Shown piece after piece: positions 1,747 to 63,840 of a DNA stretch of 64,000 nucleotides (positions are counted from its first letter, which is position 1; each line of letters starts with the position of its first letter). A model generated the notes under the pieces. It was not told where the DNA came from. It worked only from the letters and a program-made list of their open reading frames with translations, and did not search any database. The DNA lies in NCBI GenBank assembly GCA_951812525.1, contig OX638316.1:4904608-4968607 (forward strand), given 5' to 3'. The translations under genes were made by a program, and so were the position numbers. The DNA comes from an uncultured Poribacteria bacterium. Its GTDB lineage: Bacteria; Poribacteria; WGA-4E; WGA-3G.

Positions 1747-2034
1747 CGACTCCTCCTAATAGTTGAAGTGATACGTTTTCGGTTAATCTAAAATTCACTC
1801 GCTCCATAATCTACCATAATGTGGAGCAGGTGTCAAGATTACGATGATTGGAATCAGAGTCATTTATGGTAGATATTAGAATTAACCCAAGTTGCTACTA
1901 ACAGTTTTTTCATTGTAGACAGGGTTTTTAGTCCCTTTCTCCACCCCAGAGGGGTGATATGTCTATAGAAAAATGTTATTTCAAGGCAGTGCACTCCAGC
2001 GGAGTGCTATATCTATAAATACTGGCAACTTGCG

Positions 2035-2146
2035 TTAGAATTAATTGGACATTCTTAAAGAGTGTGAATACCACTAATGAGCATTCACAGAGGCACAAAC
2101 TAACAGTTTATGCTACAAAGATGTCCATTTATTTGTAGGTTTTACC
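2035..2146. repeat. Copy A of a 110-bp inverted-repeat pair. Its partner is at 10849-10958 in the opposite orientation.
   Basis: The reverse complement of 2035-2146 matches 10849-10958 with 3 differences in about 110 bp. It contains an internal palindrome TGTGAAT-N13-ATTCACA. Confidence 0.8.
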
Positions 2147-2149
2147 ATA

Positions 2150-2345
2150 GTTTATATTTGTGAATATTTTCCACCCTTTTTTCCTCATCCAACCCGGTAG
2201 GCACGGTTTTGCGGCGTACTCGACCCGACGAATGCCACACGCGCATTCGGCGTTGATTCATGCGACCTGCATTCCAACCGTGCCGGATACGAGAAAAAGG
2301 TGTCAAACTCCATATATTCTTAAAACTAAATGCCCTTATATTGGA
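2150..2345 (+). repeat. REP/MITE-like element. An AT-rich 5' flank is followed by a GGTAGG-headed hairpin (2196-2286) whose loop carries a 65-nt insertion. It is homologous to 49866-50010.
   Basis: It aligns with 49866-50010 over the 5' flank (tttatatYtgtgaatatttt...aacccggtaggcacggttt) and the 3' flank (aaccgtgccgga...attcttaaaactRaatg.ccctata). The segment 2211-2275 is present only in this copy. Confidence 0.7.
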
Positions 2346-2522
2346 CTATGTGAAAATAGTTTGTTAATTGTCTGAATCGCGGGTGACGCAGATTTCGCGG
2401 ATTAGCAGGATTCAATGATTTTCAGGATTCGTTGGCTGCTGAAAGCCAGAATCGGAAAATGATGTGTAGTAGAGAAGATAGGTGCGGAATGAAAAGCTAA
2501 GCCAAATTGTGCTTTGCACATA

Positions 2523-3233
2523 TCATGTTACATGATAGTCCACGCCATACTGCACCAAGCCCAACCGTCGTGCAACACCTTGAGAAGCAACATTGTCCCA
2601 CGAAGTACTGTAGAGCGGAATAAGGTTCAGGGCACGGATCGCGAGTGCCCAAGCAGCGATAACCGATGATGCATATCCACGCCGCCGATAACCAGCCAGC
2701 GTTTCAACACCAGCTTCATGGGCGCGTGCTGAGACACGAACACTTCGACAAATTGACACCACCTGCGAATCCTCTATGATTGCTAAACAGAGGTGCGGAC
2801 TATTTAATTCCGGTCCTATGTCGGCTAAATCTCCCTTTAGAAGTCCTGCATCCTCACGTGATAGCCGGATAACATTCGTCGGTGGTGTAATGTGTTCAGA
2901 AAAGCGGTAGGCAGGACCAACCCCGACGCGGTCAATTGGTGCATGACTTTGAAGGATATCCTCAAATTGCCTATGGTACTTTGGAATCTTATGGGAATTC
3001 ATAGAGACCGGTTCAGCAGCGATTTCTTTCAGTTGTGCAACCACATTGTCGGGAAGGTCATGCCGGAATTTACATATTGAACCTTCGTTGGTGTATCCAA
3101 AGAAGAAACGAGGTGCTGGTTTCATACCATCCCAAGGCTCGTTGATATGTCGCAGGCTTCCATTCTCATCCTGTGTGAATAGCGCCTCAACCTGAATTTT
3201 CATGAGTTCAATATCGGTGTGATGGATATTCAC
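2523..3233 (-). CDS. GNAT family N-acetyltransferase
   Basis: The C-terminal acetyl-CoA binding region reads GVETLAGYRRRGYASSVIAAWA. It is a 236-aa ORF. Confidence 0.6.
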   Translation of the reverse strand: MNIHHTDIELMKIQVEALFTQDENGSLRHINEPWDGMKPAPRFFFGYTNEGSICKFRHDLPDNVVAQLKEIAAEPVSMNSHKIPKYHRQFEDILQSHAPIDRVGVGPAYRFSEHITPPTNVIRLSREDAGLLKGDLADIGPELNSPHLCLAIIEDSQVVSICRSVRVSARAHEAGVETLAGYRRRGYASSVIAAWALAIRALNLIPLYSTSWDNVASQGVARRLGLVQYGVDYHVT

Positions 3234-3316
3234 GTTCTATACTCGCTGTAACGGAGGGTGAATTTTCCTATTTATATTTCTGGCAGCCTTTTGTTCTTAC
3301 TCTATAGGCTTTACGG

Positions 3317-4522
3317 TTACCCATCTTTAAATTCACAGTAACTCTGATACCGAAACTCTGAGATGTCTCCTGTTTTCAGGGCAGGCTGCACCGCACAACC
3401 TGTCTCATGCGTATGCGTGCAGGCACCTTTCACGCAACGCTCTCGGAGTGAATTCATTTCTGGAAAATACCGGTCCATCAAGCGAGGATCGATGTCCGAA
3501 AAGTGTAACTCGCGAAGTCCCGGTGTGTCGGCGATAAAACCACCGAAATCTAAGTGGTACAGTTGGGTTGCCACGGTTGTGTGTCTTCCACCGCGTTTCG
3601 GATTTACTTCGTTTGTTTTCAACTTCAAACCGGGTTGAATGGCGTTCAAGAGCGAAGATTTACCCACGCCAGACAATCCAGATAGCACCGAAATCTTTCC
3701 TTTCATCCACGCTTTCAAATCCTCGATTCCTTCACCGGTCGTTGCACTCGTAAAAATTGTCCGATAACCGACTTTCTGGTAAACTGTGGCTATCGTACCC
3801 ACTTCGGATCGGTCTTCGAGCATGTCAATTTTATTGAAACAAACAAGTGGCTCAATCCCTGATGTTTCAGCGATAACGAGGAATTTGTCCAGCATTCGCT
3901 GCCAGATGGGAGGCTCTTTTACAGAAGAAACGATGATGAGTCCATCGAGATTTGGAATGAGAATTACCCTTTTAGACTGCGTTCCTCGCCGTTTATATTG
4001 ACTCTTACGCCGCATAATGGATGCAATAGTGCCATGTCTGTCATCAATTAGGTGAATTTTGACGCGATCCCCAACATAAACCTGCTGATTTTTGCTAAAG
4101 GCATCGCGTTTTCCCCGCAGCGAACATTGATACCGATCCGCGGCACATTGCACAACGTAAACACCATTGCTTGCCCGCATCACGATGCCCTCGGGAAGTC
4201 CGACCAATTTTTCGTTATCGAAGAGGTAACCTGTCCGTTTGAGAAGTTCCGCGTCCGGTATAATTCGGGCAGTTTTTATGGCACTGAGACGCCTGACTCG
4301 GTTTTTGACAAGCATTTTCTCTGATTTGAGGAGCAATGCGATAACGACGGGTTTGTCCTCGTCACTGCCAAGCGCATTCTCGGCATCTCGAATCGCTGGA
4401 TCCATACCAAGATAAACCCTACAATAGATGGGACGGTTCCTCCAATCAAAAACCGAGTAATCGCCTCCGAGAATTTTTTGTGCTTCTATTAAAGTTGTGC
4501 CTGCGTAAACGGACATTGCCAT
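3317..4522 (-). CDS. rsgA: Ribosome small-subunit-dependent GTPase A (RsgA/YjeQ) with an N-terminal extension of about 110 aa. The start is uncertain; alternative Met codons lie at 4315 and 4180.
   Basis: It has an OB-fold, the G-motifs GLSGVGKSSLLN, GRHTT and DTPG, and a C-terminal zinc finger C-x-C...H-x-H-E-x-G-C. Confidence 0.8.
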   Translation of the reverse strand: MAMSVYAGTTLIEAQKILGGDYSVFDWRNRPIYCRVYLGMDPAIRDAENALGSDEDKPVVIALLLKSEKMLVKNRVRRLSAIKTARIIPDAELLKRTGYLFDNEKLVGLPEGIVMRASNGVYVVQCAADRYQCSLRGKRDAFSKNQQVYVGDRVKIHLIDDRHGTIASIMRRKSQYKRRGTQSKRVILIPNLDGLIIVSSVKEPPIWQRMLDKFLVIAETSGIEPLVCFNKIDMLEDRSEVGTIATVYQKVGYRTIFTSATTGEGIEDLKAWMKGKISVLSGLSGVGKSSLLNAIQPGLKLKTNEVNPKRGGRHTTVATQLYHLDFGGFIADTPGLRELHFSDIDPRLMDRYFPEMNSLRERCVKGACTHTHETGCAVQPALKTGDISEFRYQSYCEFKDG

Positions 4523-4848
4523 AGGCTTCGATTACCTCTGTTTTGTCTCCGACGAATCGATACGAACTTTCGCGAATGATTCAAAGATATAGGCGTTAAG
4601 ATACGATAAGACATGAGAATCTTTCACCGACACATAATTTCGGATGCACTTTTAGAGGCATGGCGTAAAGGAATAATCCAGTAATTGACGGACGATGAAT
4701 CTCCCACTACGAACAGAGCTGCTTGTAGGAGTCCAATTTTTTCTTGACGTGTTTTATGAAAGTGATTATGCTTTTAGTAAGTGAGGAATTGATCGAATGC
4801 GGTAGAAGGATCCATCAAATCATTTTATTCAGGACAAGGAGAATACCG

Positions 4849-5928
4849 ATGAAAACGTATCGTGCCGCTGTTATTGGTTGTAGCCGGATGGGTGCATTTA
4901 TTGATAACGAAGTCCCCGATTACGAAGCGATTAAGTTGCCTTATTCCCACGCTGCAGGCTTTTTTGCCGAAGAACGCACTGATCTTGTCGCATGTGCTGA
5001 TCTCCGTCCAGAAGTAATGGAACATTTTGGAAACCGATATAATGTCCCGAAAGCGAATCAATACACCGATTATCGTGAGATGCTAGAAAAAGAACAGCCC
5101 GATATTGTGAGTGTTGCCACACAACCAGAGCATCGCGCAGAAATTGTTATTTACGCAGCAAGGCACGGTGTGAAAGCCATCTATGCAGAAAAGGCGATGG
5201 CAGCTTCTATGGACGAAGCGGCAGCTATGGTATCCGCGGTAGAAGAAAACAATGTCGCCTTTAACCTCGGCACGAATCGCCGGTGGCATACAGGTTTTGA
5301 CAAGATGAAAGAGGTCATCGACAGTGGTGAAATTGGCAATCTACAAACCTTGATTATCTACTCAAACGGTACACTTTTCAACACAGCCAGCCATAACCTC
5401 GACCTAATTTTACGTTTGAATAGCGATGCACCTGCCAGTTGGGTCACAGGTTATCTCCCACAAGGCGATTCGGTTTTTGATGGGGATGAGTTGCGAGCTG
5501 ACCCGTCCGGTGGTGGAACAATCCAATTTGAAAATGGTGTGATGACACATGCCCTGCTAACGCCACGTGGTAGTGAATGGGAAGCAATTTGTGATGGCGG
5601 AACCGTTACATGCTGGAACAACGGTTGGCAGTGGCATCTCCGTAAACGGCAAGATATACCGGGATGGAGGACATGTCAAGTCCCTGAAACCTTTCCTGCG
5701 TTTGAACGCACCAGTAGCACAGCAAACTTGATTAAAGACCTTGTTCACGCATTAGATACTAGGGAACCGACCCGAGGCGGCGTCCGGTGTGCGTATGCCA
5801 GCACTGAACTGATTTTTGGCATCATTGAATCACATCTACACAACGGCGCACGTATTGAACTTCCATTGAAAGACTCAAAAGTCCGTTTACAAAGAAATCC
5901 ATCTGCAAGGCAACCACGGACCGAGTAA
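4849..5928 (+). CDS. Gfo/Idh/MocA family NAD(P)-dependent oxidoreductase
   Basis: The N-terminal Rossmann motif reads MKTYRAAVIGCSRMG and the start is preceded by an AAGGAG RBS. The upstream part of the track ORF (4744-) is probably not translated. Confidence 0.8.
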   Translation: MKTYRAAVIGCSRMGAFIDNEVPDYEAIKLPYSHAAGFFAEERTDLVACADLRPEVMEHFGNRYNVPKANQYTDYREMLEKEQPDIVSVATQPEHRAEIVIYAARHGVKAIYAEKAMAASMDEAAAMVSAVEENNVAFNLGTNRRWHTGFDKMKEVIDSGEIGNLQTLIIYSNGTLFNTASHNLDLILRLNSDAPASWVTGYLPQGDSVFDGDELRADPSGGGTIQFENGVMTHALLTPRGSEWEAICDGGTVTCWNNGWQWHLRKRQDIPGWRTCQVPETFPAFERTSSTANLIKDLVHALDTREPTRGGVRCAYASTELIFGIIESHLHNGARIELPLKDSKVRLQRNPSARQPRTE

Positions 5929-5940
5929 CCATTTTGGGTA

Positions 5941-6897
5941 TCAATCAAGGGCTTCAAGTGACGCACGCCGAATATCGTCTAACTCCTGCGCGCTGAAAAC
6001 GCCTGCTTGGTAGAGATTCCGATACTCTTCAGAGACGCTCTGACCGAATATCATCAAATCGTCTGTGTTAATCGTTACTGGCACGCCGTTGTCATATAAG
6101 ATACGAATCGGATGTGCGGCAAGATCCGACACAGCATCTAACATCACGTTACTCGTTGGACATATATTTAATTGGATCTGATTTTCAGAGAGCCATCGCA
6201 TAACGTCTGCCGATTCTGCGGCACCGATGCCATGCTGTACCTCGTCTAAGTCAAGGACTTCAACGGTTCGTTGGACTTCTTCCGCACCCCCGAACTCCCC
6301 AATGTGTGCTTTGAGTTTCATTCCCGCAGCGCGTGCCTTTTTGTATAAAGGCTGGACGGCTTCTGGAGGGCACGCTTCTTGATGGCTATACAAATCGATT
6401 GATCGATACACACCTGACTCTATTGCCTCATGCGCCAAGCGCATAAGTTTAGAATCATCGGCACACTCCCGCGCAAACCCGAGTTCTGGACGCAAATTAA
6501 TCTGCTCCCGATACCGCTCAACTAACGCATCAAGAAATGAGCGAAGTTCAGTCAACCCATCTGGATAGAACTTAACCAACCGGATATCGAAACTCATCTC
6601 AAGCATAACAACACCATCTTGAACTGCATCATCCATCGCTGACACAGCAACGCGCTCAAAACCTTGGCGGTGTTCTAAGTGAGGTGCTAAGACTTCATCT
6701 ATATAGACATGCATCCCGTCAAGTCCTTTCATTTTGAGAGGCGGTTTGGTTAGGGAGTGTCCCAGCCAACGTTCCATATTCTCTCGTCGTGTACTCAAAA
6801 AGGCATGACAGTGAACATCAGTTTTAGGGACCGCTTTTATAGCTCCCAAGTTATTTGCGGAGAGTGCTTCAATGAAATCTATAGACATAATATCCAA
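5941..6897 (-). CDS. add: Adenosine/adenine deaminase family amidohydrolase
   Basis: Metal-ligand motifs are VHCHAF, HIGEFGG, ICPTSN and TINTDD. Confidence 0.7.
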   Translation of the reverse strand: MDIMSIDFIEALSANNLGAIKAVPKTDVHCHAFLSTRRENMERWLGHSLTKPPLKMKGLDGMHVYIDEVLAPHLEHRQGFERVAVSAMDDAVQDGVVMLEMSFDIRLVKFYPDGLTELRSFLDALVERYREQINLRPELGFARECADDSKLMRLAHEAIESGVYRSIDLYSHQEACPPEAVQPLYKKARAAGMKLKAHIGEFGGAEEVQRTVEVLDLDEVQHGIGAAESADVMRWLSENQIQLNICPTSNVMLDAVSDLAAHPIRILYDNGVPVTINTDDLMIFGQSVSEEYRNLYQAGVFSAQELDDIRRASLEALD

Positions 6898-6957
6898 TTA
6901 TACTCAACTACGAATCTACCAACTCTAATTCATAATTCCAACGCCCAGTTTCCAGTT

Positions 6958-7407
6958 TTATTCAGTCATTTTTTTCATCTGAAAGTGCGTGGTAGTTTCA
7001 CCAACAATTGTAAATCCCAGTCTTTGATAGAAGATGACGCCGCGGGTGTTGACTTTTAGCACTTGAAGCACTACAGGTTTCTGCCGAAGACTGGCATCAT
7101 CAAGAATACGCGCCATGCACGCCGAACCGATGCCTCTTCCTTGGTATTCAGGCAAAATATAGAGTTGATTCACCTTAAGTGTAGCACGCGTACGAGACGT
7201 TGCTAAGAAACCGACATCCGTCCCACAAAACTGAATAATGTGTAAATCTTGTGAAGCAAACCGCCTATCGTGTAGCTCCCTTTGATAACTATCATCCCAA
7301 CCCCAAACCTGTTCTACATATTCCCGGAACGCAGCCTTCTTTACGGTAAAAACGAATTCGTTGTCGCTTGCATACGCTTTGCGAATGTTTAACTCCTCCA
7401 CAGCCAT
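6958..7407 (-). CDS. GNAT family N-acetyltransferase. The start was moved to the Met at 7407, which has an AAGGAAG RBS; the track ORF extends to 7494.
   Basis: The acetyl-CoA binding motif QGRGIGSACMARIL is present. Confidence 0.65.
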   Translation of the reverse strand: MAVEELNIRKAYASDNEFVFTVKKAAFREYVEQVWGWDDSYQRELHDRRFASQDLHIIQFCGTDVGFLATSRTRATLKVNQLYILPEYQGRGIGSACMARILDDASLRQKPVVLQVLKVNTRGVIFYQRLGFTIVGETTTHFQMKKMTE

Positions 7408-7433
7408 ATCTTCCTTTCTGAGCGGTACATACC

Positions 7434-8207
7434 CTACATTTCTTTCTGAGCGACAATGGCAAAACTCACATTGTAAGCCATCTGATGCGCCCAACTTCCC
7501 GGTGTAGCTTCAAGGTCTGGTTGGGTCCAAGATCGCTCCTCAACATGCTCAATCCGAAAACCGTTGTCCAAAAGTCCGTTGAATATATCAGTCAAGTAGT
7601 GCCGAAAATCGAACGCTCCGTCTGAATACCTGTAAATGCGCTCAGTGTACGGCATGGAGACGCGATAGTATTCACCATCCCATTCCAAGTAATGGGTGCC
7701 AGGATTGCCAAAATCTACGCGATACTGTCCTCCAGGCCGGATGATCCTTGACACGCCTTTATAGATTTCATGAACGGATGGCACCCAACTCATGGAAGGT
7801 CCCTGGTAAATGAGATCATACGAGGCATCTTCAATTTCAGATAAATCGCGCATGTTGAGGCAAAGCGTTTTTACCTGATAGCCATAATGCTCTGCAGCGG
7901 TCATATCGCCGTCAAGTTGCCCTTGCGTAAAATCAATCACCGTCACACGGGCATCAAGTAGACCGAATACCGCCGTCTGCTGTCCTCCACCAGCTGCGAG
8001 ACACAATACATCCTTGTGGGCGACATCTCTGAGTATATGAGCAGGATAGATTTGGTAGAGATGATACGGAATCGGCTCAAGCCGACCATCAGCATACTTC
8101 AGAATATCATCCCTATCAAGGTCGAGCCAAGGCACGGTAAAGCCGCCTTTCTTTACGACTTCGGCTTCCCACCGCGCTCGATTGGCAATTGTGATTTCGT
8201 CATTCAT
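7434..8207 (-). CDS. Class I SAM-dependent methyltransferase
   Basis: Motif I reads VLCLAAGGGQQTAVFGLLDARVTVIDF. Confidence 0.7.
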   Translation of the reverse strand: MNDEITIANRARWEAEVVKKGGFTVPWLDLDRDDILKYADGRLEPIPYHLYQIYPAHILRDVAHKDVLCLAAGGGQQTAVFGLLDARVTVIDFTQGQLDGDMTAAEHYGYQVKTLCLNMRDLSEIEDASYDLIYQGPSMSWVPSVHEIYKGVSRIIRPGGQYRVDFGNPGTHYLEWDGEYYRVSMPYTERIYRYSDGAFDFRHYLTDIFNGLLDNGFRIEHVEERSWTQPDLEATPGSWAHQMAYNVSFAIVAQKEM

Positions 8208-8239
8208 TGTATTTCACCATATAGGTTTAAGATTTCATT

Positions 8240-8860
8240 TCAACTGGGTGCGCCCATCGATAAATGTGAGGCTTCCCCATTCACAAACAGATCGGCTCTT
8301 TCATGCGGGAGATGCGTTTTGACGTAGCAATCTTCTTTCGGCATCCAATCCTGTTCCCATACCGGGCGTGCCTTTTCTCCATCTCGCGCAATACCTCGTG
8401 CAAGACGGATTGCTCTCGGGCACTCCACCCATATTTTCAAATCGTACAAATCTGTTAACTCGCGCCGCATCGTATAGACGCCTTCAACAAGCACCACACC
8501 AGAATCGGAAATTGTATGCCACTCAGCGAGAACATCCGTTCCCCAATCGTACCGCTGGTAATGGGCTGTGCCTCCCCGTCTAATGGGAAGAAGCACCTGA
8601 TGGCGCAAACGCTCCCAATCAAAGTCACGACCGATTGCCTCTGCTTGCTGGTTTTTGCGTTGATTAGAAGGAAGGTAGAAATCATCATGCTTGACGACTG
8701 CTACGATCCAACCCAAAGTCTTTAGTTGTTGTTCCAAAAGTTGTGCCAAAGTGCTTTTTCCAGCACCGCCAAGCCCATCAATAGCCACAAGCAGACAACT
8801 TCTTTGACATTGGAGGACTTTTAAACAATTTACAATACCTGCAAGCGAAGTGAAACCCAC
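8240..8860 (-). CDS. P-loop nucleoside/nucleotide kinase family protein (uridine-kinase-like)
   Basis: It has the Walker A motif VAIDGLGGAGKSTLAQ and is 206 aa. Confidence 0.55.
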   Translation of the reverse strand: MGFTSLAGIVNCLKVLQCQRSCLLVAIDGLGGAGKSTLAQLLEQQLKTLGWIVAVVKHDDFYLPSNQRKNQQAEAIGRDFDWERLRHQVLLPIRRGGTAHYQRYDWGTDVLAEWHTISDSGVVLVEGVYTMRRELTDLYDLKIWVECPRAIRLARGIARDGEKARPVWEQDWMPKEDCYVKTHLPHERADLFVNGEASHLSMGAPS

Positions 8861-8941
8861 ATCTCCATCCTTTGTTGTTTGAAACCCAGAGAAGTTTGCG
8901 AGGTAGTTACAGGGATTGTGTAGATCTCAGAACTATCACAG

Positions 8942-9373
8942 TCAAAAGAACATCTCTTCCTTGATTCCCCAGATGGCAGGAGAGGTGATTTCTACACTGT
9001 TCCCCGATGGATCACGAAAGTAGATAGACTTGCCATTTTCCCAACAGATTTCTTTCTCAATGCTTACCCCGTGTGCTGTGAGATGTTCCTTCCATTGATC
9101 GACTTCACGATCCTGTACAGCGAAGGCTATGTGTCCCGCCCCTTTCATCCCATGTCCGGGTGCGTCAAGCGGACCGTCTCCAGAATTAATCGTTGCTTCT
9201 GCATTGAAAAGAAGCACCATTCGATGCCCGCACCCGAGAAAAACGTGGCGATCCTCGAATTTTGAATACAGAGAAAGCCCTAAGACCGTTGTATAAAAGT
9301 GTTCAGCGGCAGCCAAGTCTGTTACATATAGAGCGACTTCAAGAATCTCTGTAACTTTTAATGTAGGCATCAT
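8942..9373 (-). CDS. VOC (glyoxalase/bleomycin-resistance/dioxygenase) family protein
   Basis: It has the beta-alpha-beta-beta-beta module pattern with metal-ligand residues H and E. It is 143 aa. Confidence 0.65.
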   Translation of the reverse strand: MMPTLKVTEILEVALYVTDLAAAEHFYTTVLGLSLYSKFEDRHVFLGCGHRMVLLFNAEATINSGDGPLDAPGHGMKGAGHIAFAVQDREVDQWKEHLTAHGVSIEKEICWENGKSIYFRDPSGNSVEITSPAIWGIKEEMFF

Positions 9374-9513
9374 ATCTCACCGAAGGGATGTGTGGTGAAA
9401 CGTTAGGTTTCACTGGGATTTCAGGGAGGTTCAAGCGTGCTAAGCTGCGAAGGGTTCTGTATTGAACAGGTCAATTTCTTGTGTCTCGTTCAACCCAACC
9501 TACGCGTCCAATT

Positions 9514-10680
9514 TTATGCCATCACACTTTCTATCCACGCCTCGTCAATTTCGAGACCGAAACCTGGGGCATCTGAAGGCGCAACATAGCCATCTTTGAT
9601 GACGGAAGTTCCGGGTAACTTGACCATCTCTTCAAGAGGCACACCGGGGGCAGAAACGCCTTCAGAACGTTCACCCCACGTGATGGCAGGCATAGCAAAT
9701 GCGAGATGTTGACCGTACGGATAATTCATTCCTGCGTGCGTAATCACGGAGATACCGTTTGCCTCCGCGATGTGGCAAATTTTGGCAGCAGCGGTAATCC
9801 CACCACACCACAAGACATCAGGCTGGAAGATGTCAACCAATCGTCGTCCTGCAGCTGCTGCAAAAACGGTTGGTAGATACCAGTGTTCACCAGTCGCGAG
9901 CGTTTGCCACGGGAGACGTTGACGCACCGTCTCATAGCCAACAAAATCGTCGGGTGGAATGTAATCTTCCATCCACTTCAAACCGTAAGGTTTCATGGTT
10001 TCGCAGACACGTACGGTATGCTCTATGTCAAACCCCGTCCACGAATCCAACATTAAGTCAACTTTATCGCCAATTGCTTCCCGTGTCGTTGCTACCAATT
10101 CTTCGAGTTTTCGCAAGCCTTCTAACCCGTGTCCTGGACCCCACGGCGTGAAGAGTTTTGTCGCTTTGAATCCGAGTTCCATGTACCATTCCTGATCGAA
10201 ACCGGAGGCGTAACAGAAAATCTTTTCCTTTTGGGGTCCGCCGAGCAATTCGTAAACGGGTCTCTTCAGGATTTTACCTTTGAGGTCCCAGAGTGCACAA
10301 TCAACTGCACTAATGGCGTAACTTGTCAAACCCGTTGCGCCGAAGGCAGCAGACGATCGCACCATCAGATCCCACAATTTTTCAGTCGCCATGCAATTTT
10401 CACCAACGAGGCGTGGGGCAAAATGATCGTTGATGATTCGGGTTACAGGACCACCATAAAGGGAAAGACCGAAGCCCCAAGTGCCGTCTTCTGCTGTTAC
10501 AATGCACGCAGGTCGGCTCCATCCCGAACCGGAGACATGTTCGCCTCTTCTGTCGGCTGCGGCATAACGGGTGACGGGTCGGTTCATCGGAAACGTTCCG
10601 GCTCGACTCGGTGTGCGCGGTGTTGTTGTGGGTTTTGGGTTCAGTTCAATTTCCACGGCGCGAATTTCTTTAATGTTCAT
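9514..10680 (-). CDS. Enolase-superfamily enzyme (mandelate racemase / muconate lactonizing / acid-sugar dehydratase-like)
   Basis: It has an N-terminal capping domain plus a TIM-barrel. The ...AISAVDCALWDLKGK... signature is present. Confidence 0.7.
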   Translation of the reverse strand: MNIKEIRAVEIELNPKPTTTPRTPSRAGTFPMNRPVTRYAAADRRGEHVSGSGWSRPACIVTAEDGTWGFGLSLYGGPVTRIINDHFAPRLVGENCMATEKLWDLMVRSSAAFGATGLTSYAISAVDCALWDLKGKILKRPVYELLGGPQKEKIFCYASGFDQEWYMELGFKATKLFTPWGPGHGLEGLRKLEELVATTREAIGDKVDLMLDSWTGFDIEHTVRVCETMKPYGLKWMEDYIPPDDFVGYETVRQRLPWQTLATGEHWYLPTVFAAAAGRRLVDIFQPDVLWCGGITAAAKICHIAEANGISVITHAGMNYPYGQHLAFAMPAITWGERSEGVSAPGVPLEEMVKLPGTSVIKDGYVAPSDAPGFGLEIDEAWIESVMA

Positions 10681-10848
10681 AGGATCTCCTTGCTACATGG
10701 ATGGGATTTAAACCTAGCAATTCCGTTACTTATGGCAACTTAGGACTTCAAAAGGGTATGATTCTGAAATATCCAAGTTTAATATACACCATCATCGGAG
10801 AAATCGCAACGGAGAAATTTGCGAGCAGGAAGTTTTATTTGTATCATT

Positions 10849-10958
10849 GGTAAAACCTACAAATAAATGGACATCTTTGTAGCATAAACTGTTAGTTTGT
10901 GCCTCTGTGAATGCTCATAGTGGCATTCGCACTCTTTAAGAATGTCCAATTAATTCTA
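10849..10958. repeat. Copy B of the 110-bp inverted-repeat pair (partner at 2035-2146)
   Basis: See copy A. Sequence outside the repeat diverges on both sides. Confidence 0.8.
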
Positions 10959-11032
10959 ATATCTACCAATGATCGACAAATAGATTGGGACAGTGAGACC
11001 TATGGTATTTAGAGTAATCAGGTCAATTAGGA

Positions 11033-11911
11033 TTAATCTACCGAGCTCTTTACCCATCGGTAAGCACGCCCAATTTGAAAAACGAGAAGACCAAACTCAA
11101 TCTTCTCTGTAATCGCAGCATCGTCTGTTTGATAGTACTTCAGAACCGCATCAATAACCCTTTTGGCAACATTACCATCAGGAGGTAAATCTGAGTACAT
11201 CTCTATAGCGAACTCAGATAGATCTACTGCTGGATCGTGCAGCAAGGCATCAGCGAAATCAATAATGGCGAGTTGTGCAAAATCTTCCTGTACAAAAAAC
11301 AGGTGGTTTATTTGGAGATCTGTGTGAACGACAGCCCATCTCTGGTCTAAGCACTCCTGCAGGTTTTCCAGCTTTTCACTCCATCTGTTTGTATAGATTT
11401 CGGCGGTATTTTCTGCAATAAACGCGAGTTTTTGCCTTGTGTCACGAATTGCCACTGCGAAAGGATCGTCAGCGCGCCGGATGTGGTCTAACACCTCATC
11501 TGGAAATTTGTGCCTGTGTAGAAAGGTGAGAGAGGTACCGAGAGATTTGCCAAAGGATTCTAATTCTTTGGCGGTAAATTTCTCCAGTGCTTCTATAGGT
11601 AGTGAAGAACCATTGATTCTTGAAAACATCGCATAGAACCCCTTGTCGTGTGCCATGATCGGTTTAGCCACAGTGAAGGGCATCGATAATGTGTGCAGGT
11701 ATTCTGTGAGTTTAACTTCTTTTAGAAGCCTGGTTCGGTAGGCGTTGCGCGCAATCTTGAGGATAACATCGTCGCGGTAATAGAAGGTAAAACTATCACC
11801 ACCACGGTGACGGTTGGATATAGGTTTTAGGTATTCAACAGATATGCCTGTAGCGAATCTTTTAAGAAAATCGCACACATTCTCTGCTGTAATCTTAGTT
11901 GTTTGATTCAT
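11033..11911 (-). CDS. Phosphotransferase enzyme family protein (APH/choline-kinase-like kinase)
   Basis: It has a Brenner-type HTDLQINHLFF catalytic motif and an IDFADA metal-binding (DFG-like) motif. Confidence 0.65.
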   Translation of the reverse strand: MNQTTKITAENVCDFLKRFATGISVEYLKPISNRHRGGDSFTFYYRDDVILKIARNAYRTRLLKEVKLTEYLHTLSMPFTVAKPIMAHDKGFYAMFSRINGSSLPIEALEKFTAKELESFGKSLGTSLTFLHRHKFPDEVLDHIRRADDPFAVAIRDTRQKLAFIAENTAEIYTNRWSEKLENLQECLDQRWAVVHTDLQINHLFFVQEDFAQLAIIDFADALLHDPAVDLSEFAIEMYSDLPPDGNVAKRVIDAVLKYYQTDDAAITEKIEFGLLVFQIGRAYRWVKSSVD

Positions 11912-12071
11912 CGGAGTATGCGTACATCGAGTAGGTTAAAAACGATCGTTGACATCACGTCTGAATAGCGTTTAACCATTGCGTCCATCAATGAAAAATG
12001 TCTGCTCAAACGTACAGAACATCTTAGATAGCAACTTGCGTTATAAATGGAAAATAACCACGAATATATTG

Positions 12072-19187: not shown

Positions 19188-19249
19188 GGTTTGTAGGTAT
19201 GAACGCGTATGGGTATTTATGGTGAATTGTGAAAATACATTTACATTTC

Positions 19250-19345
19250 AGATGCTCTTCTGTAGGACGGATTTCCGAATCCCGACGTATGCTCGCTCTC
19301 CTGTAGGACGGATTTCCGAATCCCGACGTATGCTCGCTCTTCTGT
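19250..19345 (+). repeat. Tandem repeat, about 2.3 copies of a 41-bp unit GCTCGCTCTYCTGTAGGACGGATTTCCGAATCCCGACGTAT
   Basis: It can be read directly. Related copies occur at 37905-37950 on the minus strand and at 43738-43760. Confidence 0.8.
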
Positions 19346-30374: not shown

Positions 30375-30512
30375 GTTAGCAATCTTGTCCAGTTTTGTGT
30401 GCCAAAGAGGATCCTTTAATCTTGTTTAATGAGTTTAAGAGACAAATTTCGTCAACACACTCCAGTTATCTCGAAATTATGATAGATTTTAGAATTACTA
30501 TATACCTTGCCC

Positions 30513-30537
30513 AGCGAGGTTAGGAAACCTCACCTAC
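30513..30537 (-). repeat. Instance of the REP-like hairpin family (GGTAGG head on the minus strand)
   Basis: The minus strand reads GGTAGGTGAGGTTTCCTAACCTCGC. Confidence 0.6.
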
Positions 30538-30558
30538 CGAGTAGAGAGCGTTAATTAA

Positions 30559-42499: not shown

Positions 42500-43147
42500 T
42501 TATACGTGCTCTTTAGATTGCCACATCGGAATAGCCATTGTCAATTCGTTTCGCAAGACTTCAATCTCTTGGGACAGAAACGAGAGTAGACGCTGCATTG
42601 TCACTGTTGCCTCATCTGTCGGTCGCTCTTGAATAACATGTTTAAGTTCATCCCGCAATTGATAGGCTTCATTGAGTCGTGTCCACTTCTGAGTTCGGTC
42701 GCGACGGTGCTGCTGCAGCCACGAGCGATTGAGACGGAGTGTAGCAATATGGTATTCACCACACGGCGTAAGCGGTTGAAGTAAACCGTTGTCGGATTCG
42801 ATGAAATGAACACCGGCATCCTGCTCACGACAGGGATCTGCAAAGCGATATCCTCGACGCAGTTGTTCGCTCGTCGGCCATTTATTATGTTTTATTATAT
42901 TGCAAGGGATGCAGACCCAGTACAGGTTGGTATAGTCATTGATAGGTCCGCCTTTGCTTTGTGGTTTGAAATGGTCAATACAAAAGGCTTGGGAACCACC
43001 CTTTGTTTGCTCATGAACACCGCAATAAGCACAACGAAAACCGAAGTCCCTGCGAAGATAAGGTTCAGCATTCCGATAACCTGTTCTGCCTCGCATCACA
43101 GGTGGCGATTCCCGTCGTCGGATACGCGCGGAAGTTCTTTGATTCAC
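42500..43147 (-). CDS. HNH endonuclease with a helical C-terminal extension of about 100 aa. Its GTG start overlaps the stop of the upstream gene.
   Basis: The HNH motif reads CAYCG...IDHFKPQSKGG...NLYWVCIPCNIIKHNKW, preceded by YRNAEPYLRR. Confidence 0.75.
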   Translation of the reverse strand: MNQRTSARIRRRESPPVMRGRTGYRNAEPYLRRDFGFRCAYCGVHEQTKGGSQAFCIDHFKPQSKGGPINDYTNLYWVCIPCNIIKHNKWPTSEQLRRGYRFADPCREQDAGVHFIESDNGLLQPLTPCGEYHIATLRLNRSWLQQHRRDRTQKWTRLNEAYQLRDELKHVIQERPTDEATVTMQRLLSFLSQEIEVLRNELTMAIPMWQSKEHV

Positions 43148-49865: not shown

Positions 49866-50010
49866 AGTTTATATATTTACTTTATATCTGTGAATATTTT
49901 TCGTCCTTTTTACCCATCTAACCCGGTAGGCACGGTTTCCTAACCGTGCCGGAAACAAAAAAAAAGGCGTAAAACCTAATAAATTCTTAAAACTGAATGA
50001 CCCTATAGAG
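49866..50010 (+). repeat. REP/MITE-like element between hemA and hemC, homologous to 2150-2345. Its hairpin is 49926-49952.
   Basis: It reads GGTAGG-CACGGTT-TCCTAA-CCGTGCC-GG with conserved flanks. Confidence 0.7.
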
Positions 50011-63558: not shown

Positions 63559-63576
63559 GATTTCTCCGTTACGGTT

Positions 63577-63840
63577 GGAAATTTTAAATGTCTGCTTATT
63601 TTTATTAGGACTTACGCACTTCCCCGGTAGGTGCGGTTTCCTAACCGCACCGATTGCGTCATGTGGAAATTTTAAATGTCTGCTTGTTTTTATTAGGACT
63701 TACGCACTTCCCCGGTAGGTGCGGTTTCCTAACCGCACCGATTGCGTCATGTGGAAATTTTAAATGTCTGCTTATTTTTATTGGGACTTACGCACTTCCC
63801 CGGTAGGTGCGGTTTCCTAACCGCACCGATTGCGTCATGA
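63577..63840 (+). repeat. Three tandem direct copies of an 88-bp unit, each containing a GGTAGG-headed REP-like hairpin (CCCCGGTAGGTGCGGTTTCCTAACCGCACCG). It sits 19 bp upstream of the start of the 62857-63558 gene.
   Basis: Copies begin at 63577, 63665 and 63753 and differ by 1-3 substitutions. An inverted fragment of the unit (TGCGTAAGTCC) follows at 63861. Confidence 0.85.

Follow-up and report, generated by a model that had tools for sequence, protein, structure and literature searches.

Two inverted 121-bp repeats around a nine-gene block in Candidatus Poribacteria: very probably separate insertions of one miniature transposable element

Two near-identical small repeats stand in inverted orientation on either side of a block of nine genes in an uncultured Poribacteria bacterium (contig OX638316.1, positions 4,904,608 to 4,968,607; this stretch of 64,000 nucleotides is the window of this report), and the question is whether they make the block a mobile unit, an invertible segment, or neither. 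A first-pass annotation had named a composite mobile element and an invertible segment, and, as an alternative, two independent insertions of a MITE (miniature inverted-repeat transposable element). The evidence supports this alternative. The two arms are very probably two independent insertions of a 121-bp non-autonomous MITE, here called element A, of a family that is widespread in Candidatus Poribacteria. This is concluded because the copies have separate target duplications (TA/TA and AT/AT) and empty sites, vary independently between strains, enclose a block that is syntenic in relatives free of the repeats, and belong to a dispersed family. The features concerned, with comparison loci given as L numbers, are:

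1867-2147, plus strand: element A copy 1 as a whole, the left copy, split by the nested element B
1867-1885, plus strand: outer 19 bp of copy 1's left terminal inverted repeat, TGGTAGATATTAGAATTAA, which match the intact right copy at its positions 1-19 (100%)
1886-2034, plus strand: nested element B, 149 bp, absent from copy 2 and from the A-like copies of L027 and L006, which are empty sites for it
2035-2147, plus strand: the other 113 bp of copy 1, with the right terminus ...TTTGTAGGTTTTACCA and the second copy of B's target duplication
2523-10680: nine-gene block, encoding a GNAT protein, RsgA, a Gfo/Idh/MocA enzyme, an adenosine-deaminase-like (ADA) protein, a GNAT protein, a methyltransferase, a PRK-like kinase, a VOC/glyoxalase protein and an enolase-superfamily enzyme (Pfam)
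10848-10968, minus strand: element A copy 2, an intact 121-bp MITE, with its terminus pair found and a precise empty site in L042 and L045

The repeat search gives two pairs of inverted arms, 2077-2147/10848-10918 (71 nt, 100% identity) and 2035-2076/10918-10959 (42 nt, 95% identity). BLAST joins both, and 2035-2147 aligns with the reverse complement of 10848-10959 at 110/113 identities with one gap (E=4e-52). The near-identical inverted pair is thus real, and the recent copy event that had been read from it is a reasonable conclusion. No second pair comparable to it occurs in the first 14 kb. The extent first given, about 110 bp ending at 2035 and 10958, was wrong. Similarity in the right copy extends as far as 10968, the unit is 121 bp long, and the 19 bp missing on the left lie at 1867-1885.

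Element A has imperfect terminal inverted repeats of ~27 bp, TGGTAGATATTAGAATTAATTGGACAT and ATGTCCATTTATTTGTAGGTTTTACCA, with 19/27 positions matching. It is non-coding, with no open reading frame (ORF) of its own and only trivial ones overlapping it. The interior comprises two small hairpins, and as single-stranded DNA the element folds modestly better than its shuffles (-14.5 kcal/mol, z = -2.8). Rfam gave no credible match at gathering or permissive thresholds, and no tRNA genes were found. The palindrome TGTGAAT-N13-ATTCACA, which had been put forward as a protein-binding site, is present at 2063-2089 in the left copy, but is imperfect in the right copy (TGCGAAT-N12-ATTCACA). It belongs to a hairpin inside the element, TGTGAATGCC...GGCATTCACA, which the sister-species copy of L027 has in perfect form. 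Polarised with L027 as the outgroup, each window copy carries one derived substitution, and copy 2 a 1-bp deletion as well. The hairpin is weakened by both substitutions, which argues against a strong constraint on the palindrome here; in the window copies it seems to be decaying and not conserved.

The flanks of the two copies differ. Copy 1 has TA at 1865-1866 and TA at 2148-2149, while copy 2 has a 2-bp target duplication, AT, at 10846-10847 and 10969-10970; the check for target-site duplications proposed earlier therefore gives TA/TA for one copy and AT/AT for the other. Copy 2 lies 64 bp downstream of the stop codon of an APH-family phosphotransferase gene and 167 bp upstream of the start codon of the enolase-superfamily gene. 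Its empty site reads GGATC-AT-AATACA in L042 and L045, which are from other species, as against GATC-AT-[121 bp]-AT-GATACA in the window. By this alignment, copy 2 was inserted precisely, with 2 bp of the target duplicated. Some 70 bp further along the same APH-enolase spacer, L042 carries another member of the family.

Copy 1, with B nested in it, is also found in strains L043 and L044 (98.7-99.2% identical). In L040/L002 (98.4-98.7%) its place is held by another family member of 175 bp, and in L045 and L041 the copy 1 spacer contains neither A nor B nor a further small repeat, D. Copy 2 varies as well, through the following segment:

10821-11911, minus strand: segment of ~1,090 bp with the APH gene (11033-11911) and A copy 2, missing from L001, where the junction is seen

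L001 and L044 are abutting contigs of the same assembly, in which copy 1 is present (L044) and the copy 2 region is not (L001). The gap is read as a deletion in L001 because the APH-enolase adjacency is ancestral (L041, L045). The pattern of presence and absence in close strains indicates that the two copies vary independently. Contigs L003 and L004 start at window position 10820, which is the L001 deletion junction beside copy 2. The ends of L001/L044 fall at 4689-4713, inside the block. Several independent metagenome contigs end at one or the other of these points, which lie close to sites that vary between strains or bear repeats. These contig ends are consistent with strain heterogeneity breaking short-read assemblies, to which small repeats may contribute.

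Element B has the inverted termini CCCAAGTTGCTAC.../...GGCAACTTGCG and represents a second small-repeat family, with a B-like element of the same terminus in L001 at 8003-8101. It is bracketed by a 10-bp direct duplication, TTAGAATTAA, at 1876-1885 and 2035-2044. By alignment with the unsplit copies, B was inserted into copy 1 after copy 1 arrived. The inner side of copy 1 is occupied by a third repeat:

2150-2326, plus strand: element D, an older degenerate small repeat that adjoins copy 1 and shares its TA (spacer alignment, BLAST)

A BLAST search of D against the window gave a second copy at 49867-49993. The 175-bp A-family member of L040 is intact, has a different interior, and stands at the position aligned with 2150-2326; a 40-bp core of D is 90% identical to it. 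D has the termini GTTTATAT.../...TTCTTAAAAC and a hairpin, CCGGTAGGCACGG...CCGTGCCGG, and represents a third small-repeat family. In the window copies of D (n=2) and in L040, the element lies between half-sites of the form GGGNCATT-TA-AATGNCCC, which suggests that it was nested into an older element or a palindromic target. The stretch 2342-2455 was considered as a further insertion and rejected, as it is ancestral spacer that L045 retains and L040 has lost by deletion. A short palindromic motif, GCAAACTAACAGTTTGC with the core ACTAACAGTTT, occurs inside both A and B (window 2099-2109, 10886-10896 and 1897-1907) and recurs often in Poribacteria loci, such as L027 (several sites), L009 and L034. 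[quoted passage not shown]

The block itself is the second part of the question. Its nine gene assignments, made earlier from the sequence, are correct according to Pfam. On its left, the block adjoins a long gene of the minus strand, which begins near 1745, continues past the edge of the window and encodes 778 amino acids (aa) in relatives; the right neighbour is the APH gene. In L045, the order is NUDIX, DHDPS, APH, enolase, VOC, PRK, methyltransferase, GNAT, ADA, Gfo, RsgA, GNAT and the 778-aa gene. The order and orientation of the APH gene, the nine-gene block and the 778-aa gene in the window are kept in L045 and nearly so in L041. Both are from other species and lack both A copies, so that the synteny comparison suggested at the outset finds the block in the same place and free of repeats. 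The block is present beside the same neighbours in L001, L040, L041, L043 and L045, with or without either repeat. The block is bounded by the repeats only in this strain. Identity to strains L001 and L040 is 98.5-98.7% in the block and 97.7-99.5% in its flanks, and the GC content has no step at the block. As judged from gene order, the nine-gene block is vertically inherited core chromosome with ancestral synteny, and is no cargo.

No transposase or recombinase was detected by Pfam in the nine block genes, as had been stated, nor in 40 further ORFs of the window to ~61.3 kb. The sole nuclease-like protein among the scanned ORFs is an HNH-domain protein (42500-43147, minus strand), for which no link to the repeats was found.

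The family to which element A belongs is dispersed. A scan of species-representative genomes with an 18-mer of the terminus gave 33 hits, of which 17 are loci in 15 Candidatus Poribacteria genomes; the remaining 16 lie in unrelated taxa, with a chance expectation of ~17. The APH and GNAT homologues of the window are also Poribacteria proteins. A cyanobacterial source, considered at first from the style of the repeats, was rejected once the hits had turned out to be Poribacteria. At the Poribacteria loci, short elements of 98-281 bp end in this 18-mer; they have common termini, differing interiors and different flanking DNA. The consensus built from 10 elements is TGGTAGATATTAGAATTAaTTgnACA for the left terminus and, reverse-complemented, TGGTgAATCcTAAAAATAAaTngACA for the right. 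The interiors are heterogeneous and often contain GC-rich hairpins. Complete pairs of left and right termini number 11 in 260 kb of Poribacteria DNA and 0 in 124 kb of control loci. A hidden Markov model of the ends detected 36 ends in the Poribacteria DNA, whereas the controls gave the seeded 18-mers only. Ten of the 11 complete elements are flanked by TA on both sides and one by AT, with the flank preference YTA|..|TAR. Full-length copies resembling A occur at unrelated loci in L027 (86%) and L006 (75%), and one metagenome-assembled genome (L009, L034) has two copies that are 95% identical and have different flanks. Further family copies occur in L027 and L010. Besides the two A copies, the window contains at least two partial family members:

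30480-30541, plus strand: truncated third family member, with the terminus TGATAGATTTTAGAATTA (2 mismatches) and a GC-rich interior hairpin, GCGAGGTTAGGAAACCTC
19220-19345, plus strand: partial family member; its right-type terminus, TGGTGAATTGTGAAAATA, has 3 mismatches, and after it an internal hairpin is duplicated in tandem (41 bp x 2.2)

The duplicated hairpin of the latter, GTAGGACGGATTTCCGAATCCCGAC, occupies 19254-19345 in the spacer between a CBM9/DUF5916 gene and a GNAT gene. A full-text literature search gave no description of MITEs in Poribacteria. The family seems to be undescribed so far, though an ordinary kind of element. Bacterial MITEs are typically <200 bp in length, and have terminal inverted repeats and TA ends (PMC2229807).

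The two insertions can be pictured as follows. A DDE transposase of IS630/Tc1-mariner type, with its gene elsewhere in the genome, would bind the shared termini and, in trans, cut and paste element A into TA and rarely other dinucleotides. Copy 2 was inserted into the APH-enolase spacer, and copy 1 into the repeat-rich spacer upstream of the promoter of the 778-aa gene, where it was later struck by B. The family tends to land within other repeats. Mobilisation in trans by such a transposase has about an even chance of being correct. The sole ground for the IS630/Tc1 assignment is the 2-bp, mostly TA, duplication. In ISY100, an element of this group, TA was duplicated in 34/39 insertions, and AA/TT in 2/39 (PMC2170065), and such occasional non-TA targets fit the single AT case here.

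Several points weigh against two independent insertions. Neither the 17 exact-terminus Poribacteria loci nor the rest of the DNA compared contained an autonomous element or a transposase whose termini match. There is no pair of ends 1-1.5 kb apart, as in a parent insertion sequence (IS), in the 260 kb of Poribacteria DNA, and the candidates L022 and L013 have a solo terminus only, next to a lipoprotein gene. Two copies of 97% identity within 8.7 kb exceed a sparse random expectation, and their closeness needs many genomic copies or local hopping. The empty site of copy 1 is approximate and less clean than that of copy 2, with repeat D as its inner flank. When a metagenome collection was scanned with the 20-mer CATTCACAGAGGCACAAACT from inside A, the only two matches were chance hits, and element A was not among them; the population is not in the collection, so that the scan is silent on copy number. 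The reference-genome scan likewise gave no locus near-identical to the window. If the two insertions are independent, their inverted orientation and 8.7-kb spacing would be incidental, a matter of chance or of local hopping.

The rival that survives best is that the copies are domesticated cis-regulatory or RNA elements, kept as promoter, terminator or RNA-processing signals like the Correia elements of Neisseria. Each copy is intergenic and close to a 5' region, copy 2 being upstream of the enolase-superfamily gene, and the folding of element A is somewhat better than that of shuffles. Copy 1, measured from its outer end, lies 31 bp from a promoter-like site:

1808-1836, minus strand: promoter-like site TTGACA-17-TAGATT with an upstream TG, for the 778-aa gene, conserved in L040, L041, L043 and L045

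The left terminus of the element, TTATGGTAGAT, resembles the native -10 region of this promoter, TTATGGTAGATTATGG. The promoter-like site that contains TTATGGTAGATTATGG has 11 consecutive bases in common with the left end of the MITE and its flank, TTATGGTAGATATTAG. Set against this, element A has no predicted sigma-70-type promoter or intrinsic terminator, Rfam has no match, the orthologous spacers of sister species and strains work without the element, and the interiors vary freely over the family. A regulatory role is very unlikely.

It could also be imagined that the two 113-bp copies recombine, through RecA or through a site-specific recombinase acting in trans, and so flip the 8.7-kb block and alter its expression, since an inverted pair with 97% identity over 113 bp may serve as a substrate for homologous recombination. 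This is highly improbable. The orientation in the window is the ancestral one, as in L041 and L045, and the four informative contigs (L001, L040, L043 and L044) all have it. No recombinase was matched by Pfam among 50 ORFs of the window to ~61.3 kb. Being recent insertions of a dispersed family and specific to strains, the repeats are no conserved switch, and the two substitutions in the internal hairpin give no sign of constraint. The invertible segment proposed at first is thus not supported. A broader speculation, and a very unlikely one, is that recombination at the inverted MITE pair does reversibly invert the 8.7-kb metabolic block within the population of sponge symbionts, and, more generally, that a family whose terminus mimics the native extended -10 region TGGTAGATT may be co-opted to rewire adjacent genes, as Correia is in Neisseria.

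A composite transposon predicts arms that are coding insertion sequences, one duplication at the outer ends, and a block that is present or absent as a unit, and all three predictions failed. That both A copies are the ends of an 8.9-kb mobile unit, mobilised in trans with the nine genes as cargo, is scarcely credible: near-identical terminal-repeat elements are indeed inverted around a gene block, but the block lies between the same neighbours in the same orientation in two other species without either repeat, the outer flanks are TA (1865-1866) and AT (10969-10970) with no common duplication while each arm has its own pair, strains exist with one copy and without the other, divergence from sister strains is equal in and outside the block without a GC step, and the arms are non-coding around nine genes that are metabolic or ribosome-associated, with no transposase among the scanned ORFs.

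Some further features of the window lie outside this question. Next to the APH gene, at 11911-11992, NUDIX and DHDPS genes are absent from the window; they are found between a sulfotransferase gene and APH/enolase in L001 (7995-9779), L042 and L045. In the comparison of the window with L001, which is without APH, the breakpoints include the APH ATG and the DHDPS stop codon. Exact look-ups of the APH, sulfotransferase and RsgA proteins gave no match; enolase and GNAT proteins identical to those of the window are encoded on a contig of >1 Mb. At 63576-63839, an 88-bp unit is present in 3.0 tandem copies with 98% matches. It holds a GC-rich hairpin, GGTGCGGTTTCCTAACCGCACC, which is the same module as that inside many members of the MITE family, and 32 bp of it match L036 3735-3766 at 100% identity. 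The 32-bp repeats at 63.6 kb were considered as a clustered regularly interspaced short palindromic repeat (CRISPR) array, which was rejected in favour of the 88-bp x 3 tandem repeat.

With two independent insertions as the preferred explanation, the cassette-like geometry would amount to two unrelated MITE hits, and the annotation of the nine genes should be core chromosome, not cargo. Poribacteria, which are uncultivated sponge symbionts, carry at least three small nested repeat families (A, B and D) that are polymorphic between strains of 98-99% identity. The termini defined here are possible strain markers and a handle for finding the cognate transposase.

Among known systems, the Correia/NEMIS elements of Neisseria are alike in their length of ~100-155 bp, their ~24-26-bp terminal inverted repeats, their TA termini with target duplication and their intergenic position, and also in having size variants by internal modules and no transposase identified in the host (PMC2229807, PMC2649163). 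They differ in that sequence and phylum are unrelated and that the Poribacteria interiors are far more heterogeneous. Promoter, IHF-site and RNase III functions have been shown for Correia, whereas the Poribacteria family is known here from sequence only. RUP of Streptococcus pneumoniae and ISY100-type MITEs resemble the family in TA insertion with a 2-bp duplication and in the tendency to enter other repeats, and the occasional non-TA use of ISY100 (PMC2170065) matches the 10 TA and one AT cases in Poribacteria. In contrast, RUP has a known parent IS with matching termini (IS630-Spn1) and none was found for the Poribacteria family, and its sequence is unrelated to that of element A, though it works alike (PMC2229807). 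Composite transposons such as Tn5 and Tn10 are similar in that they hold several kb of genes between two mobile-element copies in inverted orientation. Here, by contrast, the copies are 121-bp non-coding MITEs without a shared outer duplication, and the genes between them are ancestral, with their synteny kept in relatives that lack the repeats.

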